From positions 1 through 38,533 of IMG/VR virus record IMGVR_UViG_2721755643_000003: a DNA stretch of 38,533 bases; one strand, written 5' to 3'. Of the stretch, positions 22,319 through 38,533 are shown one piece after another. The DNA comes from a virus (Duplodnaviria > Heunggongvirae > Uroviricota > Caudoviricetes). Both the position numbers and the translations under genes were made by a program. How positions within the stretch are numbered: position 1 is the first letter of the stretch; each line of letters opens with the position of its first letter. Under the pieces are notes generated by a model that did not search any database, was not told where the DNA came from, and saw only the letters and a list, made by a program, of their open reading frames with translations.

Positions 22319-23370
22319 GTAAACGTAAAAGCGCACGCCTGCGTAAACGGGCACAGACAGAAAATTTTACTCCCGGACGCGGCAATATTATCACTTTCGG
22401 GGAGCCGGAACCGATACTGACTACCGGCACGGAATACATCAACGTCTGGTATAACGGTAGCTACAACTACTGGACACTACCAATAGACAGACTTGCGCTC
22501 GCGCAGTTGCCGAATCTTAACGCCCAGCATGGCGGCGTACTGTATGCACGCAAAAATATGGTGTGTGCCAGCTACCAGGGGGGTGGACTGACGACCGATC
22601 AGATGGAAATGGCTGTCTTTGACTACCTGCTGTTTGGTGATGTGGCCATTCTGAAGGTCCGTAACGGGTGGGGACGGGTGGTGGCGCTGGCACCATTACC
22701 GTCTTTGTATCTGCGTCGCAGCAAGCAACTTGATTTTATCGTGTTACAGGAGGGCGAGCCGCTGGTCTATTCGCCGTCTGATGTTGTGTTTTTACGTATG
22801 CATGATCCGCGACAGCAGATTTATGGACTGCCTGATTATATCGGTGGTATTCATTCAGCGTTACTGAACAGTGAGGCGACCATTTTCAGACGTCGCTACT
22901 ATCACAACGGTGCGCATATGGGGTTCATCATGTACGCGTCCGACCCGAATATGTCTGTTGAGGCTGAAGAAGCTATACGTAAAAAAATAGAGAGCGGTAA
23001 CGGGCTTGGGAATTTCCGTAACATGTTTATCAGTATCCCAAAAGGGCAACCGGACGGGATTAAAATTATTCCGGTTGGGGATATTCAGCAAAAAGATGAG
23101 TTTTCAAATGTGAAGAATATCAGCGCTCAGGATGTTCTTACGGCGCACCGCTTTCCGGCTGGTCTTGCCGGTATTATCCCGCAAAATGCGAGCGGACTTG
23201 GCGATCCCGATAAGGCAAGGACAACCTATGGACGGGATGAAGTGACACCTGTCTGCCGTAAATTCATGCAGGCTGTGAACAGCGATCCCGAAATCCCCCC
23301 GTCGTTACACCTTAATTTTACGCTGGAAGATGTGGAAAATGTGGTGTCTGCGCTGGCTGATGAAAAATAA
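22315..23370 (+). CDS. Portal protein (P2 gpQ-like)
   Basis: From MSKRKSARL; strong similarity to remembered P2 gpQ (LNSEATIFRRRYYHNGAHMGFIMY vs LNESATLFRRKYYENGAHAGYIMY; GNFRNMFISIPKGQPDGIKIIP vs GNFRNLFLYSPNGKKDGIQIMP). Confidence 0.9.
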   Translation: MSKRKSARLRKRAQTENFTPGRGNIITFGEPEPILTTGTEYINVWYNGSYNYWTLPIDRLALAQLPNLNAQHGGVLYARKNMVCASYQGGGLTTDQMEMAVFDYLLFGDVAILKVRNGWGRVVALAPLPSLYLRRSKQLDFIVLQEGEPLVYSPSDVVFLRMHDPRQQIYGLPDYIGGIHSALLNSEATIFRRRYYHNGAHMGFIMYASDPNMSVEAEEAIRKKIESGNGLGNFRNMFISIPKGQPDGIKIIPVGDIQQKDEFSNVKNISAQDVLTAHRFPAGLAGIIPQNASGLGDPDKARTTYGRDEVTPVCRKFMQAVNSDPEIPPSLHLNFTLEDVENVVSALADEK

Positions 23371-23420
23371 CCCGAAAAAGACTATATTACCCCTGCAACC
23401 GGTCAGATTGTGGGGGGGTT

Positions 23421-23696
23421 ATGGCGGGTGTGATGAAAATTGAATGTCCGGCGTGTCACTGCCGGGCGGCTATACGCAAAACTGCATGGCAGGATGACGC
23501 AAAAACGCTGGCGGTAGTTTATTGCACCTGCACTAATTCTGACTGCAATATGCGTTTTTCGCTCAATCTTTCCGATCTTCGCGTGATTTCACCCAGTGAC
23601 CTGCAGACTGATGGTGTCGTTAAAGCATTGCTCCAGCGCCTTAAACCAGACGAAAGGCAAATGGCACTGGATATTCTGCTCAGTGATGGCGCGTAA
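23421..23696 (+). CDS. Ogr/Delta-family zinc-finger late transcription activator
   Basis: 91 aa; CPAC...(24 aa)...CTCTNSDC is the C-x2-C...C-x4-C spacing of P2 Ogr (CPLC...CQNVNC); G-rich ribosome-binding site. Confidence 0.7.
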   Translation: MAGVMKIECPACHCRAAIRKTAWQDDAKTLAVVYCTCTNSDCNMRFSLNLSDLRVISPSDLQTDGVVKALLQRLKPDERQMALDILLSDGA

Positions 23697-23830
23697 GTGC
23701 CATTCTGTGGGGCGGTGGATCTTCCGCTTCCTCGCCCTGACAGACTCACCGCTATGCGGTTCGCTAATCAGGGGCTGCGGCGAGCGGTTTTGCACAATAT
23801 GATCCAGTACAGCAACAGAGAGATTTAGTT

Positions 23831-24349
23831 TTATTCGAAGCTGGCAAGAATCTGTTCTCGAACAGAAGATTTCATCGTTAACCCACGATCCAGGAAAAAT
23901 TGGAAATGCATTAAGGCTTGTTGTTTGTGGATAAATCTCCTGCGCACAGCCTCCTGGAGTAGCCCTCCGTGGCGGGCGGCTTTTACACCGCGTTCCGCAC
24001 ACGTTTTATAAACCGCATTATCCGCCGAAAGACATGTTGCATCATGTATTCTCGCGTTAACAACGCAGCTTATGTCCGCATACTTCAATGCTCTCCTGCG
24101 ATTTTTTATCTCAGCCATTTCAATAAAATGTTCAGGTTCGTAATCATTGGTGAAATTGTATGGAAGTTGCAGGCGTGTAAGCTGTTCCTGAACATCAAGA
24201 TTGTATTTAGCTTTTAGTTCCTCGCAGACATAGGGGTCAATCCACACACCACCCGGGTAAATTTGCCAGATAAGATCTAAGCATTTACCTTCGTAAAAAT
24301 CAGACAGTACATTCGTATCGATAACACATCTGGGGCATTCAAACGGCAT
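23831..24349 (-). CDS. PIN-like nuclease domain protein (DUF4411-like, candidate toxin/effector)
   Basis: Track ORF 23831..24382; probable start at 24349 (MPFECPRCVIDTNVL) with AGGAGG 9 nt upstream; PIN-type acidic positions in VIDTNVL, VCEEL and IHDATCLSADN; overlaps the upstream gene stop by 11 nt; AT-rich. Confidence 0.6.
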   Translation of the reverse strand: MPFECPRCVIDTNVLSDFYEGKCLDLIWQIYPGGVWIDPYVCEELKAKYNLDVQEQLTRLQLPYNFTNDYEPEHFIEMAEIKNRRRALKYADISCVVNARIHDATCLSADNAVYKTCAERGVKAARHGGLLQEAVRRRFIHKQQALMHFQFFLDRGLTMKSSVREQILASFE

Positions 24350-25484
24350 CCTCTCCGGCCTCCTGTTCGTCGTACCATTCATCCAGAAGATTGCTGAGAG
24401 CTTTTCTGTCTAATTCTAAAAGTTCAGATATGAAGGTTTCCGACGCGGAACCGGCTTCCCATGCTTTACGCGATAAGACGGTTAGGCGACCTTTATAATT
24501 TAGTGCTTCCCTTATGGGATTTGGCTCGTGTCTCTTCCAGCCTTTACGATTGGCGGTTGCCCATAGGTATCTAGTGTTTTGCTGATTAATTAAATTACAT
24601 TTACTAAGACGCTCAATGATGCAAGTGGCTGATACTCTGAAAATGCTTTTTAGTCTAAGGACGGTTTCCTCATACGCCCATCCACCACCTTGCATGACGA
24701 ATTGTTTTCGCAACGCGCTTTCTGGTACCAAAAAACAAGCAGCAAAGTGATTAGCAACTTTTTCTTCCGGTGAAATTGCTTTGCCATTAGTTTTATAGCT
24801 TTTAGCAGGGCCATCATACTCATCACGGTGGAAGATAAGATGAGCATATTCATGGCAAATACTGAAGATTTGACGTTCTATTGAAATGCTGTCGTGAACA
24901 TTTACATAAATCGCGGTACCGTATTTGTTCGAAAACGCAGAAAATCCGAATACCATCCCTTTATCGGTTTCCTCGCGATTGAACGGGATCACTCGAATAT
25001 CCGATGCTTCCAAAATGGCTACAATGTCACCAACGCAAGTAGCGTTTCCCATACCAAGACGGAAACGTTCTTCCATAGCCTTATCTTCGACTCTTCGCAA
25101 ATCTTCTGCTTTGGCGGTAAAAACAGGCATTGAGTTAGGAAGATCTTCTGGCAAATTAGCATCAGCAGCTTCCTCAATTGCATTGATATTTTTTAACTTT
25201 TCAATCAACTCATTGCGAAGTCTGGCATCCAACAAATCCGGACTATCTGCTCGCATTGCAAAACGAAACTCGCCATCATCTTGCTCATAAAAATACCCGA
25301 CAGGCTTATCGAAAATCTTGCAGAGCATGATGAGTTGGGTAACGCTTGGGACGCCTAGCGCCTGCTCAAACTTACTGTAGGTTTGACGAACAACACCGAT
25401 CGCATCTGCGACGGCGCTTGCACTCATTCCTGCGTCGTTTCTGGCCTGAACCAAGCGTTCTGCTATACGCTGTTGAATGTTCAT
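24339..25484 (-). CDS. Fused XRE-family HTH / ImmA-IrrE (M78) zinc metallopeptidase regulator
   Basis: 381 aa; N-terminal HTH (AERLVQARNDAGMSASAVADAIGVVRQTYSKFE); HExxH as HEYAH and downstream E...ANHFAACFLVPE, the ImmA/IrrE signature; GGTGA ribosome-binding site. Confidence 0.8.
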   Translation of the reverse strand: MNIQQRIAERLVQARNDAGMSASAVADAIGVVRQTYSKFEQALGVPSVTQLIMLCKIFDKPVGYFYEQDDGEFRFAMRADSPDLLDARLRNELIEKLKNINAIEEAADANLPEDLPNSMPVFTAKAEDLRRVEDKAMEERFRLGMGNATCVGDIVAILEASDIRVIPFNREETDKGMVFGFSAFSNKYGTAIYVNVHDSISIERQIFSICHEYAHLIFHRDEYDGPAKSYKTNGKAISPEEKVANHFAACFLVPESALRKQFVMQGGGWAYEETVLRLKSIFRVSATCIIERLSKCNLINQQNTRYLWATANRKGWKRHEPNPIREALNYKGRLTVLSRKAWEAGSASETFISELLELDRKALSNLLDEWYDEQEAGEDAV

Positions 25485-25600
25485 ACGTCACCTGAATTTA
25501 ACAATGGTGGCTCTTATGGGTTTAGATTGGTTAATTATTACTAACATTATGAATGGAGAGTTGCAAAAATCATAATTAAATTATGCAAATTTCATGGAGT
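25485..25600 (-). promoter_or_regulatory. Promoter/operator region of the HTH-peptidase/PIN operon
   Basis: AT-rich; on the - strand TTGCAA, 17 nt, TAGTAAT upstream of the GGTGA site; imperfect palindrome GTTAATTATTACTAAC near the -10 as a possible operator. Confidence 0.4.
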
Positions 25601-25868
25601 GTGATGTGGTGTGGGTTCACACTCTCTGCTGATTACATCCAGGGCGGTTTCCGCCCTGGCTCTGCTTACTCAGGAAATAACGCCCGGATATTTCCGGCCA
25701 TCTGACTGGTTATCTGTGCGGTTGGTACTGGCTGTGGCGTGGGCGTTCTGCCCTGTTTGCGCCCTGACCTATGCAATCCGCGCCGGATTCATATGGCACA
25801 TGTTTGAGGTAGCCTGAGTTTAACGGACACTCCTTCCTGAAATAGAATGGCATCAGAAGGAGCTAATA

Positions 25869-26171
25869 ATGAGCAGAAAAACCCAACGTTACTCTAAAGA
25901 GTTCAAAGCCGAAGCTGTCAGAACGGTTCTTGAAAATCAACTTTCGATCAGTGAAGGCGCTTCCCGATTATCTCTTCCTGAAGGCACTTTAGGACAATGG
26001 GTTACCGCCGCCAGAAAAGGGCTCGGTACTCCTGGTTCCCGCACGGTGGCTGAACTGGAATCTGAAATTCTGCAACTGCGTAAGGCGTTAAATGAAGCTC
26101 GCCTTGAGCGAGATATATTAAAAAAAGCAACAGCGTATTTTGCACAGGAGTCGCTGAAAAATACGCGTTAA
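25869..26171 (+). CDS. IS3-family transposase OrfA (HTH DNA-binding part)
   Basis: 100 aa ending ...LERDILKKATAYFAQESLKNTR; slippery A_AAA_AAA then G at about 26120-26127 near the 3' end. Confidence 0.85.
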   Translation: MSRKTQRYSKEFKAEAVRTVLENQLSISEGASRLSLPEGTLGQWVTAARKGLGTPGSRTVAELESEILQLRKALNEARLERDILKKATAYFAQESLKNTR

Positions 26172-26206
26172 TCGAACAATGGCGACAACAATTTCCCATT
26201 GAAGCG

Positions 26207-27025
26207 ATGTGTCAGGTATTTGGTGTATCCAGGAGCGGTTATTACAACTGGGTACAGCATGAACCCTCAGACAGAAAACAAAGTGATGAGCGGCTAAAAC
26301 TGGAGATTAAGGTGGCACATATCCGCACTCGCGAAACATATGGAACCCGGCGGCTCCAGACGGAGCTGGCAGAGAATGGCATCATCGTTGGTCGTGACCG
26401 ACTGGCACGTCTTCGTAAGGAGCTAAGGCTACGCTGTAAGCAGAAACGCAAGTTCAGAGCGACTACGAACTCGAACCACAATCTGCCAGTTGCGCCAAAT
26501 CTGCTGAACCAGACGTTCGCTCCTACAGCACCAAATCAGGTCTGGGTGGCGGACCTGACGTATGTTGCCACACAGGAGGGATGGTTGTACCTCGCTGGCA
26601 TCAAAGATGTTTATACGTGCGAAATTGTCGGCTACGCCATGGGAGAGCGCATGACAAAAGAGCTGACAGGTAAAGCCCTGTTTATGGCGCTCAGGAGCCA
26701 GCGCCCACCTGCCGGGCTAATCCACCACACCGATCGAGGTTCACAGTACTGCGCATACGATTACCGGGTCATACAGGAGCAGTTTGGTCTGAAAACATCA
26801 ATGTCGCGTAAAGGTAACTGTTACGACAACGCTCCGATGGAAAGCTTCTGGGGAACGCTGAAAAATGAGAGCCTGAGCCACTATCGTTTTAATAACCGGG
26901 ATGAAGCCATCTCAGTAATACGGGAATACATTGAGATTTTCTACAATCGTCAGCGTCGTCACTCTCGTCTGGGGAATATCTCCCCGGCAGCCTTCAGGGA
27001 AAAATATCATCAGATGGCTGCTTAA
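26207..27025 (+). CDS. IS3-family transposase OrfB (DDE catalytic part; expressed as OrfAB by -1 frameshift)
   Basis: 272 aa in the -1 frame relative to orfA; DDE context VWVADLTYV, HHTDRGSQY, ESFWGTLKNE; the frame is open back to the slippery site. Confidence 0.85.
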   Translation: MCQVFGVSRSGYYNWVQHEPSDRKQSDERLKLEIKVAHIRTRETYGTRRLQTELAENGIIVGRDRLARLRKELRLRCKQKRKFRATTNSNHNLPVAPNLLNQTFAPTAPNQVWVADLTYVATQEGWLYLAGIKDVYTCEIVGYAMGERMTKELTGKALFMALRSQRPPAGLIHHTDRGSQYCAYDYRVIQEQFGLKTSMSRKGNCYDNAPMESFWGTLKNESLSHYRFNNRDEAISVIREYIEIFYNRQRRHSRLGNISPAAFREKYHQMAA

Positions 27026-27065
27026 AAAAAGAACAAATGGTAGTGTCCGCTATTGCCAGTACACC

Positions 27066-27368
27066 TCAGTTGTGTCTTTTTTCTGCATGGTAATGAGCTT
27101 TGTTCTCGTTAAACGGTAACACCTCATTCAGCCCGGCACTTCTGAAATCAGCGTGTAATTGCTCCAGTACTGTTTCTTTATCAGCACCCGTTAATTCGAG
27201 ATAATCCCAGAGGCTGGCGCATAAACCACAGTTTCGCGAAAATATTCTGCCTGGATTTGCTCCGTTTTTCAGCCACAAATCATAAGTAATATAAAATCCG
27301 TGAAGTTGTTGCCTGATACTTTCTTTGATTTCCTGCGCTGGCACGGTGCCTGGTAATTGCTCTCTCAT
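27066..27368 (-). CDS. Hypothetical early-operon protein, C-terminus truncated by the IS insertion
   Basis: Track ORF 27066..27404; its stop codon is supplied by the last 3 nt of the IS; without the IS the frame would continue about 10 codons (..MCHMNPARIA) into the left flank. Confidence 0.4.
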   Translation of the reverse strand: MREQLPGTVPAQEIKESIRQQLHGFYITYDLWLKNGANPGRIFSRNCGLCASLWDYLELTGADKETVLEQLHADFRSAGLNEVLPFNENKAHYHAEKRHN

Positions 27369-27796
27369 TGTGAATCTCTCCTGTGTTGTGCCGGTCTGGC
27401 GCATGAATGGCGCTGCGGTAAAAAGACCCTTTGCGTCAGTGCGGCCTTGCGATTGACGGCAGTCAGCGTTCTGGCCAGCGCGACATTGTGTTTGCGGGTC
27501 TGCTCTTCGTGGTACTTCTGCATGATTTTCCCGGCCGGCGTGAGTGGTTCCGGCTCTTCCGGTGAACGGCGCGGACGAACGGCAACTATCCAGCTCTGAT
27601 ATTCACTGCCCGGTCGCCTGTTAAGTATGTCGGTGATGGTGGTTGTGGTGGTGCGATCGGGGCTGGCCACCGTGATTTCCAGTTCGTCCCCGGGCTGTGG
27701 TCTTGTGGCTACGCCTCTCAGTGTCATGGCTGGCGTGCGCTGGCGCATAACGGCGTCGAACTGCTGACGCTGCATGGTGCAGTGAAATCGCGTCAT
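27365..27796 (-). CDS. Hypothetical protein downstream of the replication gene
   Basis: 143-aa ORF overlapping the stop of gene A by 4 nt; no family recognised. Confidence 0.35.
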   Translation of the reverse strand: MTRFHCTMQRQQFDAVMRQRTPAMTLRGVATRPQPGDELEITVASPDRTTTTTITDILNRRPGSEYQSWIVAVRPRRSPEEPEPLTPAGKIMQKYHEEQTRKHNVALARTLTAVNRKAALTQRVFLPQRHSCARPAQHRRDSQ

Positions 27797-35903: not shown

Positions 35904-35970
35904 AGTGGTACATTGTGATCATCTAATGGTTCGTGAAATTACTTTAGGGAACAAAACTTCCTATGTCAAC
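35904..35970. promoter_or_regulatory. Lysis-lysogeny switch region (early promoter; repressor promoter nearby)
   Basis: 59-bp divergent intergenic region; on the - strand a perfect -35 TTGACA (overlapping the repressor start codon), 17-nt spacer, -10 TAAAGT; layout as in P2/186 face-to-face switches. Confidence 0.45.
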
Positions 35971-36376
35971 AGAAAAAGAGGAACTAAGCGTCATTATTGG
36001 CCGTCGATTACGGGAGGAGCGAGAGAAAATTGGCATGACCCAAGATGATATGGCGTCGATTTTTGAAGTTTCTACAAAGACTTGGGGGAAGTATGAAAGA
36101 GGGGTGACTACACCGGATGCAGTTATGTTGAATCTCTTGGGAGGGCGCTGCGGAGTAGATGTCTATTACATACTTTCTGGTAGTCGTGCACATGGCATCC
36201 CTAATGCTACTGAAGATGAGATTGAGCTAATTAAAATATATCGTTCTGCACCTTTGGCTGTTAAGGCGGCAGCTTTGGCAGCCTTGACTGCTGGTAGTTT
36301 GTCTCTAGGTACAATAAGAGCTTCTGGCAAAGGCCATCGTATTGCAGGTCGTGACTATAACGAAACGAAGGGTTAG
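35963..36376 (+). CDS. Prophage repressor (XRE/CI-family HTH)
   Basis: 137 aa; HTH in LREEREKIGMTQDDMASIFEVSTKTWGKYERG; divergent from the early operon and on the same strand as the integrase. Confidence 0.75.
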   Translation: MSTEKEELSVIIGRRLREEREKIGMTQDDMASIFEVSTKTWGKYERGVTTPDAVMLNLLGGRCGVDVYYILSGSRAHGIPNATEDEIELIKIYRSAPLAVKAAALAALTAGSLSLGTIRASGKGHRIAGRDYNETKG

Positions 36377-37531: not shown

Positions 37532-38533
37532 ATGTCTGTTCGTAAATTACCTACTGGCAAATGGCTCTGTGAATGCTACCCCTACGGAGCAGCAGGAAAA
37601 CGCATTCGTAAACAGTTTGTTACTAAGGGTGAGGCGCTCTCTTATGAGCGCCGTTTAATGAACAGTAATTTGGGGAGCGAGTTTCAGGATGGTTCTGGCC
37701 CCCGCCTTTCCGAGTTGGTTGCTCGCTGGTTTGAGATGTACGGTAAGACACTGTCTTCCGGTGAAGAGCGAAGGGCTAAACTTGAGGCGATTTGCTCCCG
37801 GTTGGGGGATCCGCTTGCTTCTCAATTTGATAAAAACATGTTTGCCACCTACAGGGAACGGCGATTATCAGGTGAATGGAATCCAAAGGGGAAGAGGAAG
37901 CTTAGCGAAGCAACCGTTAATCGTGAGCAGTCATATCTACATGCTGTTTTTGCCGAACTGAAGCGCCTTGGGGAGTGGTCTGGTGAAAACCCCTTAACTG
38001 GCATTCGCAAATTTCGTGAGGAAGAAAAGGAACTGGCGTTTCTGTATGTAGATGAGATTGAACGCCTTCTGATTGCGTGTGATGAGTCACGGAATAAAGA
38101 TTTGGGGGTTGTTGTCCGTATTGGGCTTGCGACTGGTGCTCGGTGGAGTGAAGCAGAAGGATTAAAGCAATCTCAAGTACTGCCCGGTCGAATCACATTT
38201 GTTAAAACTAAAGGAAAGAAGAACCGCACTGTACCGATTTCACCTCAATTGCAGGCTATGCTTCCTAAAAAACGAGGAGCGCTATTTTCACCATGTTATG
38301 AGGCTTTTGACGCTGCAATTAAGAGAGCGAAGATCGAGCTTCCTGATGGGCAATTAACTCATGTGCTACGTCACACGTTTGCCAGTCATTTTATGATGCG
38401 GGGCGGAAATATTCTTGTGTTGCAAAAAATACTGGGGCATAGCGATATAAAAATGACTATGCGTTATGCGCATTTTGCTCCAGGTCATTTAGAGGCTGCT
38501 GTTGAATTGAACCCTTTTGACAATAGAGGGTAA
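37532..38533 (+). CDS. Tyrosine integrase (P2-family)
   Basis: 333 aa; ATGARWSEA, RITFVKTKGKKNRTVPIS and LRHTFASHFMMRGGNILVLQKILGHSDIKMTMRYAHFAPGHL align with remembered P2 Int motifs (catalytic R...H-x-x-R...Y); its stop is the last codon of the window. Confidence 0.9.
   Translation: MSVRKLPTGKWLCECYPYGAAGKRIRKQFVTKGEALSYERRLMNSNLGSEFQDGSGPRLSELVARWFEMYGKTLSSGEERRAKLEAICSRLGDPLASQFDKNMFATYRERRLSGEWNPKGKRKLSEATVNREQSYLHAVFAELKRLGEWSGENPLTGIRKFREEEKELAFLYVDEIERLLIACDESRNKDLGVVVRIGLATGARWSEAEGLKQSQVLPGRITFVKTKGKKNRTVPISPQLQAMLPKKRGALFSPCYEAFDAAIKRAKIELPDGQLTHVLRHTFASHFMMRGGNILVLQKILGHSDIKMTMRYAHFAPGHLEAAVELNPFDNRG

Follow-up and report, generated by a model that had tools for sequence, protein, structure and literature searches.

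What kind of system is formed by two overlapping minus-strand genes carried as cargo by a P2-like Escherichia coli prophage? The genes, here named A and B, are located in IMG/VR record IMGVR_UViG_2721755643_000003. The window, i.e. the whole stretch of DNA analysed (38,533 nucleotides, 38.5 kb), is a P2-like prophage of E. coli CFSAN029787 showing 100% identity to NZ_CP011416.1, and its integration site adjoins yecA/tyrP. Gene A encodes a fusion of an XRE-type helix-turn-helix (HTH) domain and an M78 zinc peptidase, gene B a PIN-fold protein, and the pair is probably a toxin-antitoxin (TA) or phage-defence module. The explanation that we favour, with a probability of roughly 0.6, is a self-contained, horizontally mobile TA-type module of the RosmerTA or 'Xre-COG2856 + PIN' kind, which is cargo of the P2-like gpA-gpQ hotspot and acts by the mechanism proposed below. 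An earlier interpretation made from the letters of the window (the sequence-only reading) had described the 11-nucleotide (nt) overlap and an AGGAGG before the second start, and had quoted the motifs HEYAH, ANHFAACFLVPE, VIDTNVL, CEEL and HDATCLSADN for a fused XRE HTH-M78 protein and a PIN-like protein. The gene arrangement can be read directly from the DNA, all motifs are present in the translations, and the domain calls agree with the Pfam matches to HTH_3, Peptidase_M78 and PIN.

In protein A, HTH_3 covers residues 13-65 (33 bits) and Peptidase_M78 residues 193-294 (45.9 bits). This corresponds to the description of RmrA as an ImmA/M78 zinc peptidase, usually with an N-terminal HTH. Fifteen RmrA models of PADLOC matched the protein with E values from 3.2e-35 to 5.3e-13, most of them spanning residues ~4-321 (residues 4-321 in the best match, 3.2e-35). 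A match to the NCBIfam 'spr1629 family repressor/antitoxin' stayed below the cutoff (86 bits vs 335). In an alignment of 26 homologues, with identities down to 24%, H211, E212 and E241 do not vary, H215 hardly varies, and N245 and F247 are likewise strictly or almost strictly conserved. H211, E212 and H215 form the HExxH motif, to which E241 adds the glutamate zinc ligand. HTH and peptidase are fused in one open reading frame (ORF) in gene A and in all 26 aligned homologues. The AlphaFold2 (AF2) model, with a predicted local distance difference test (pLDDT) value of 85, is composed of the HTH (residues 1-66), a disordered linker (pLDDT <50 at residues 70-73), an alpha/beta peptidase core and a helical C-terminus, where DSSP assigned helices only (residues 272-380, pLDDT about 90). 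Foldseek related the peptidase to CapP (7t5t), IrrE (3dte), PprI (8slm) and a Mycobacterium tuberculosis regulator (6cz6), and the HTH to SinR, P22 c2, C.BclI, DdrO and CapH. Following a hydrophobic residue, R78 is unchanged in the aligned homologues and belongs to a segment whose pLDDT is below 50. We regard protein A as a putative RmrA-like antitoxin and autorepressor. By sequence, its sole match in the PDB is weak (E 0.0015) and concerns 9vzy_A, a solved 393-amino acid (aa) 'HTH cro/C1-type domain-containing protein'. As the alignment includes both the HTH and the M78 part, 9vzy_A appears to have the fused architecture of gene A and could represent the first RmrA-like protein with a solved structure; a literature search found no paper mentioning PDB 9vzy.

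The longest ORF of gene B (23831..24382, minus strand) comprises 183 aa; RefSeq (WP_001115690.1) and all homologues agree on the ATG at 24349 as the start (MPFECPR...). Pfam PIN (PF01850) matches residues 20-127 of the 183-aa ORF with 24.6 bits (cutoff 23.6). All 16 close homologues (56-88% identity) have D11, E43/E44, D92 and D110; of these, D11 and D92 are also constant in distant PIN partners (20-37% identity), where the two remaining positions are retained in a conservative manner. The AF2 model of protein B (pLDDT 94.1, predicted template modelling (TM) score 0.88) was best matched by 1y82, VapC4 (5h4g), Rv0301 (3h87) and HARP (7og5). These are VapC-type PIN domains or PIN-like RNase P, with E values starting at 6.5e-5 (6.5e-5 to 5e-4 for 1y82, 5h4g and 3h87) and target-normalised TM scores of 0.61-0.69. 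Protein B thus has, in addition to the alpha/beta fold of PIN domains, four acidic residues that are conserved. The sequence-only reading had named the lack of such a fold or of an acidic triad as speaking against its proposal. The conservation of the acidic tetrad makes an active nuclease more plausible than a protein that merely binds.

Sequence searches were less informative for gene B. The PIN profile found no meaningful match among PDB chains (best E 0.24), and NCBIfam and PHROGs gave none. Homologues of gene B carry precomputed Pfam matches to PF11848/DUF3368 (COG2405), a recognised class of VapC-like toxins (Geobacillus TA survey). A current Pfam scan of five homologues yielded weak PIN matches and no DUF3368, so that the assignment to the COG2405 subgroup rests on the precomputed matches. 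In a library of representative proteins, 18 separate stretches of the 3,106-aa protein P0122 matched the PIN profile (E 1.9e-10); either the ORF has been mis-called or P0122 is possibly a very large protein with repeated PIN domains.

The two genes are closely coupled. The ATG of gene B (24349-24347) lies ahead of the TGA of gene A (24341-24339), resulting in an overlap of 11 nt (24339-24349), and the AGGAGG inside gene A is located 9 nt upstream of this ATG. The same 11-nt overlap is present in the loci from Rahnella and from metagenomes.

Aligning the upstream regions of otherwise unalignable loci revealed a conserved block in front of gene A. Its core, TGTTA-N8-TAACA with at most one mismatch, was detected in 7 of 8 independent loci, the eighth containing a perfect N7 version. 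According to shuffled sequences, such a palindrome is expected by chance in 0.4-3% of 160-nt regions, and the pattern had been derived without four of the eight loci. Apart from the site at 25529-25546, the window contains none of the TGTTA-N8-TAACA type. A -10-like CATAAT abuts it, and a good promoter (TTGTCA-18-AATAAT, 10/12) occupies the equivalent position in the Enterobacter locus. We infer that the palindrome is an autoregulatory operator bound by the HTH domain of protein A. The invariant GTTAA just upstream of the ribosome-binding site of gene A is, judged from the alignment, a possible third half-site. Two AT-rich 8-mer inverted repeats (I2 and I5) were set aside as operator candidates, since they are not conserved in other loci, in contrast to TGTTA-N8-TAACA.

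For homologues of protein A or B we inspected the contigs that carry them. In all 10 contexts with a readable downstream gene, the HTH-M78 gene (identity to protein A from 70% down to ~27%) is followed by a PIN gene of usually ~165-175 aa (DUF3368 in precomputed Pfam), mostly with overlapping reading frames. These contexts are a Rahnella chromosome, where the cassette is inserted between housekeeping genes, soil and other metagenome contigs, an Enterobacter locus adjoining cpxRA, a Lamprobacter locus adjoining an MmeI-type restriction-modification (RM) system, a Mu-like prophage with a PIN protein shortened to 139 aa, and four more contigs with an antitoxin identity of 27-33%, two of which adjoin the ubiquitin-like Bil system and a patatin gene. 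An eleventh contig (L020) ends in a 58-aa fragment of unassigned family, leaving the partner unreadable. Of the complete E. coli genomes, 32 of 5,426 carry the cassette, always on the chromosome and with both genes in full length, and a search of 72,556 plasmids did not detect it. The pair is an autonomous, mobile cassette whose two genes are kept together across very different genomes. On three contigs (L018, 1-2326; L010, 1-1526; L020, 1-1830) distant cassettes lie directly beside BilA/B/D, MmeI-family RM and type I HsdR, respectively; these contigs look like defence islands.

According to the RefSeq annotation, the cassette is flanked by the portal gene and an ogr/Delta-like zinc-finger gene on one side, and by a ParR-like remnant, IS600, two hypothetical genes and the replication endonuclease, in this sequence, on the other. 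It therefore belongs to the variable genes found between the gpA endonuclease and the gpQ portal of P2-like elements, a validated defence hotspot for which 169 genetic systems have been catalogued (Rousset et al. 2022). Its GC content (0.41-0.46 over 24001-25500) is lower than that of the structural genes (0.50-0.56). Both this AT-richness and the location between ogr/portal and the early region had been noted correctly in the sequence-only reading, and its proposal of a toxin/effector module with a role in defence is consistent with the domains, the coupling and the hotspot location.

Table 1. Position of the cassette, its candidate control elements and adjacent features in the window.
Feature	Coordinates	Strand	Basis and remarks
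Gene A, 381-aa fused XRE-HTH and M78 (ImmA/IrrE, COG2856) zinc peptidase	24339..25484	-	ORF, Pfam, PADLOC
Gene B, 172-aa PIN-fold protein (COG2405/DUF3368-type), putative toxin/effector nuclease	23831..24349	-	RefSeq WP_001115690.1, Pfam, fold
Shine-Dalgarno sequence AGGAGG of gene B	24359..24364	-	Sequence reading; inside the 3' end of gene A
Ribosome-binding site AGGTGA of gene A	25488-25493	-	Position only
GTTAA, invariant	25498..25502	-	Invariant alignment columns; just upstream of the gene A ribosome-binding site
Operator-like palindrome TGTTA-N8-TAAC(C), TGTTAGTAATAATTAACC	25529..25546	-	Alignment block; 45-62 nt upstream of the gene A ATG
-10-like hexamer CATAAT	25546..25551	-	Relaxed scan; abuts the palindrome; weak -35; candidate promoter element
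ParR-like 'plasmid partitioning/stability' gene, 3' remnant	25666..25743	-	RefSeq pseudogene; neighbour, outside the cassette
IS600 transposase (IS3 family)	25869..27025	+	ORF, RefSeq; truncates the par locus

The sequence-only reading knew of no named system with this architecture. This does not hold in view of the RmrA matches of gene A and of descriptions in print. RosmerTA consists of a Zn-peptidase antitoxin and a toxin of unassigned function; it protects against phages, and constructs lacking rmrA could not be transformed (Millman et al. 2022). The ImmA/Rosmer hub antitoxin has been associated with PIN-like toxins, and HTH cleavage was suggested as a regulatory mechanism; the RmrT of Gordonia phage Kita is a membrane depolariser (Ernits et al. 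2023). For PIN-like genes (COG2405, DUF4411, PIN_14/20/26) that lie downstream of an HTH-DUF955/COG2856 fusion gene, a function as TA toxins was predicted (Matelska et al. 2017). Finally, Table S5B of Rousset et al. (2022) lists a 'System #53, Peptidase_M78/HTH_31 | DUF4411/PIN' with 77 occurrences. Its proteins differ from those of the window by a few residues, and the locus is gpA-gpQ in both. The entry bears no note and is absent from the tested systems of Table S2, which contains no M78 or PIN term.

Compared with RosmerTA, the cassette shares the two-gene operon, the HTH + ImmA/M78 antitoxin, the carriage by prophages and defence islands and the variable toxin partner. It differs in that the partner is a PIN protein of COG2405/DUF3368 type that does not match the RmrT profiles, whereas the characterised RmrT of Kita depolarises membranes; RmrT is, however, heterogeneous by definition. 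Also close are the systems of Matelska et al. (2017) and, as far as they are relayed by later work, the Xre-COG2856 pairs of Makarova et al. (2009). The layout is exactly the same, i.e. a fused HTH-DUF955 gene directly upstream of a gene for a PIN-like protein, here with an overlap of 11 nt and a predicted PIN fold. Those systems, for which three components were predicted, were described purely computationally, without operator, trigger or phenotype. System #53 has both proteins and the locus in common with our cassette and differs in being a catalogue entry only. VapBC and COG2886(UPF0175)-COG2405 pairs share the PIN fold with its acidic tetrad, the antitoxin in first position and overlapping genes. 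Their partner, however, is a small antitoxin of VapB type (AbrB, RHH, Phd or short HTH, the toxin being bound by a C-terminal tail) or of UPF0175 type, unlike the 381-aa HTH-metallopeptidase encoded here.

By analogy with RosmerTA, the ImmA-hub antitoxins, ImmA, IrrE and CapP, we propose the following mechanism. A dimer of protein A would bind the TGTTA-N8-TAACA operator abutting the -10 element and thereby repress the operon. Protein A would in addition block the PIN nuclease, a role that probably falls to the helical C-terminal domain specific to its family. The peptidase may be switched on by a cue from the phage or by some other stress, whereupon protein A would cleave itself. As candidate cut site we name M77-R78, a conserved hydrophobic-Arg dipeptide that belongs to the disordered linker and follows closely on the HTH. 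Cleavage would derepress the operon and at the same time set the PIN nuclease free. The latter might then degrade RNA (tRNA, rRNA or mRNA), halting growth before the phage cycle ends by abortive infection or superinfection exclusion.

The paired inheritance of A and B, the defence neighbours (MmeI RM, Bil, HsdR, patatin and the P2 hotspot) and the conserved operator speak for this explanation. Several points weigh against it. No RmrT model of PADLOC matched gene B at E <= 0.1 and there were only weak matches to PDC-S70 (E 5e-4); without an RmrT match, the pair would not be called 'Rosmer' by the current models of PADLOC. Among 50,697 deposited phage records no homologue of the PIN protein was found, and our literature search yielded no experimental study of this pair or of any PIN-partnered Rosmer-like system. 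A strict sigma-70 consensus scan detected no promoter on the minus strand. From the claim of the sequence-only reading that the pair has its own promoter and operator, there accordingly remains the CATAAT abutting a palindrome conserved in unrelated loci; the operator candidate was given there without coordinates. The neutralisation of PIN by protein A, the self-cleavage and the RNA target are steps that we infer. Moreover, the polarity of toxin and antitoxin is not certain, because the Xre-peptidase fusion of PD-lambda-2 is itself toxic.

The alternative that survives best is that of an addiction module, whose main role would be to stabilise, by post-segregational killing, a P2-like element that may persist as a plasmid, instead of anti-phage defence. 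In relatives free of the insertion sequence (IS), such as NZ_CP124495, an intact parM-parR lies between the cassette and gpA, directly beside the cassette, and a TA module next to partition genes is the classical layout for plasmid stability. The par genes have been suggested to allow maintenance of such prophages as plasmids (Rousset et al. 2022). In the window itself, IS600 has destroyed the par locus, leaving 78 nt of the ParR-like gene and no ParM, but the cassette is intact: IS600 lies ~275 nt upstream of gene A, and the conserved upstream block is unharmed too. Furthermore, the cassette also resides in chromosomes far from par genes or mobile replicons, adjoins RM, Bil and patatin genes, and is present on none of the plasmids searched. 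We therefore hold addiction as the main role to be unlikely, noting that addiction and defence are not mutually exclusive.

Alternatively it might be that the cassette is a pure transcriptional switch resembling CapH/CapP, as implied by the damage-sensing label of the sequence-only reading. The fused repressor-protease would cleave itself upon DNA damage or when single-stranded DNA (ssDNA) is present, and PIN would be expressed, no neutralisation at the protein level being involved. CapH/CapP, ImmR/ImmA and DdrO/IrrE(PprI) indeed share with gene A the XRE-HTH repressor and the M78 chemistry. The peptidase core resembles CapP, IrrE and PprI structurally and matches the capP model of PADLOC (2e-15), the upstream operator is conserved, and ImmA, IrrE and CapP all act through cleavage of a repressor (Ernits et al. 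2023; PMC13228613). CapH is cut at the hydrophobic-Arg site F82-R83 (PMC13228613), which is comparable to the candidate cleavage site in protein A. However, the groove with which CapP and IrrE bind ssDNA runs between their peptidase domain and a GAF domain (PMC13228613), and in the predicted model of protein A no GAF domain was seen in the C-terminus, which is helical from residue 272 to 380; nor does the loop between H215 and E241 contain a cysteine-switch residue. The lack of GAF weakens the idea of damage sensing, and sensing of the trigger in the ssDNA manner of CapP and IrrE is unlikely. In addition, repressor and protease are separate proteins in the CapH/CapP-type pairs but fused in one chain here, the match to the capH model was marginal (E 0.023), and a single co-translated PIN protein is controlled rather than a downstream operon. 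In validated Rosmer systems deletion of RmrA is lethal (Millman et al. 2022). Translational coupling would produce PIN whenever A is made, and stoichiometric neutralisation therefore fits better than on/off expression. A switch without neutralisation seems to us quite improbable.

A reversed polarity, with the HTH-peptidase as the toxic effector and the PIN-like protein as its neutraliser or co-factor, would follow the example of PD-lambda-2, in which the Xre-peptidase fusion (PD-lambda-2B) is toxic alone and rescued by a HigB-like partner (Vassallo et al. 2022). A survey of TA systems in Geobacillus also names COG2856 as the putative toxin of Xre-COG2856 pairs, and the original proposal by Makarova, to the extent that this survey relays it, treated the protease as the toxin. 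PD-lambda-2 shares with our cassette the fusion of Xre-HTH and peptidase, and was found in a screen with many systems in P2-like prophages. It differs in comprising three genes, in its HigB-like partner and in the toxicity of the Xre-peptidase itself; in PADLOC, none of the PD-Lambda-2 models matched gene A at E <= 0.1, compared with 15 RmrA models. Furthermore, the PIN acidic tetrad is invariant in close homologues and conservatively kept in distant ones, and RmrA is the antitoxin in the Rosmer systems tested (Millman et al. 2022; Ernits et al. 2023). A toxic protein A is thus very unlikely.

The assumption of an ImmR/ImmA-type regulator, by which the pair would control the lysogeny switch of its own prophage, is effectively refuted: HTH + M78 pairs do govern the induction of ICEBs1 and some phages (Ernits et al. 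2023) and phrog_2439 'transcriptional regulator' matches gene A in full length (2.5e-45), but more than 10 kb separate the pair from the integrase (37532-38533), the HTH repressor (35963-36376) and a cox-like DNA-binding gene, and the cassette is part of a variable cargo hotspot, is rare in E. coli, also occurs at non-phage chromosomal sites outside mobile elements and retains the PIN gene in every readable context. A routine immunity-region regulator shared by syntenic phages, named in the sequence-only reading as the outcome that would speak against a defence module, was consequently not what we found.

A more far-reaching version of the explanation favoured here, by which the cassette would be the first RosmerTA-type defence with a PIN effector, is doubtful in our estimate. 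In this version a phage cue would cause a single-chain repressor-protease-antitoxin to cut itself at M77-R78; this one cut would lift the repression of the operon and also liberate an RNA-cleaving PIN, with a mode of sensing different from that by GAF and ssDNA.

Regarding the surroundings of the cassette, the ogr/Delta-like zinc-finger gene (23421-23696, plus strand; phrog_603, 3.6e-24) lies between the portal gene and gene B. In a relative (L002) this position holds no annotated gene but an intergenic stretch of ~530 nt. Homology with the IS-free relative stops near 25759, and around the module it extends only over ~23792-25759. This, together with the difference at ogr, indicates that the cassette is inserted in at least two P2-like backbones. 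Between the ParR-like remnant and the conserved upstream block we observed a perfect 9-bp GC-rich hairpin without a T-run (CCAGGGCGG-TTT-CCGCCCTGG, 25639-25659), which is also kept in the IS-free relative and may be a terminator or an insulator separating the par operon from the cassette. Rfam gave no match at E <= 0.1 in 23300-27200, and terminator-like matches were at chance level. Two small hypothetical genes of 112 and 143 aa lie between IS600 and gpA (27066-27796, minus strand); they match phrog_6418/2510 and phrog_14984, which have no assigned function, and could be further cargo.

Architecture, locus and the pair itself are already in print, and in this respect our cassette is new only as an intact further example of a known design. 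The conserved palindromic operator-like site upstream of gene A is new at the level of sequence, as are the modular mobility and the long-conserved pairing of A and B. The predicted structures add a confirmation of both folds, the apparent absence of a GAF sensor and the candidate cleavage site M77-R78. Since architecture, locus and likely role have all been anticipated, the thinking of the field would not change, and the cassette, though a reasonable target for the bench, will be no surprise to the specialist. Validation would take one of the 169 systems listed for the P2 hotspot from catalogue to experiment. The pair would then add a nuclease-effector branch to RosmerTA, and with two genes and one 18-bp operator it would provide a compact model for the sensing of infection by fused HTH-M78 antitoxins that do without a GAF/ssDNA module.

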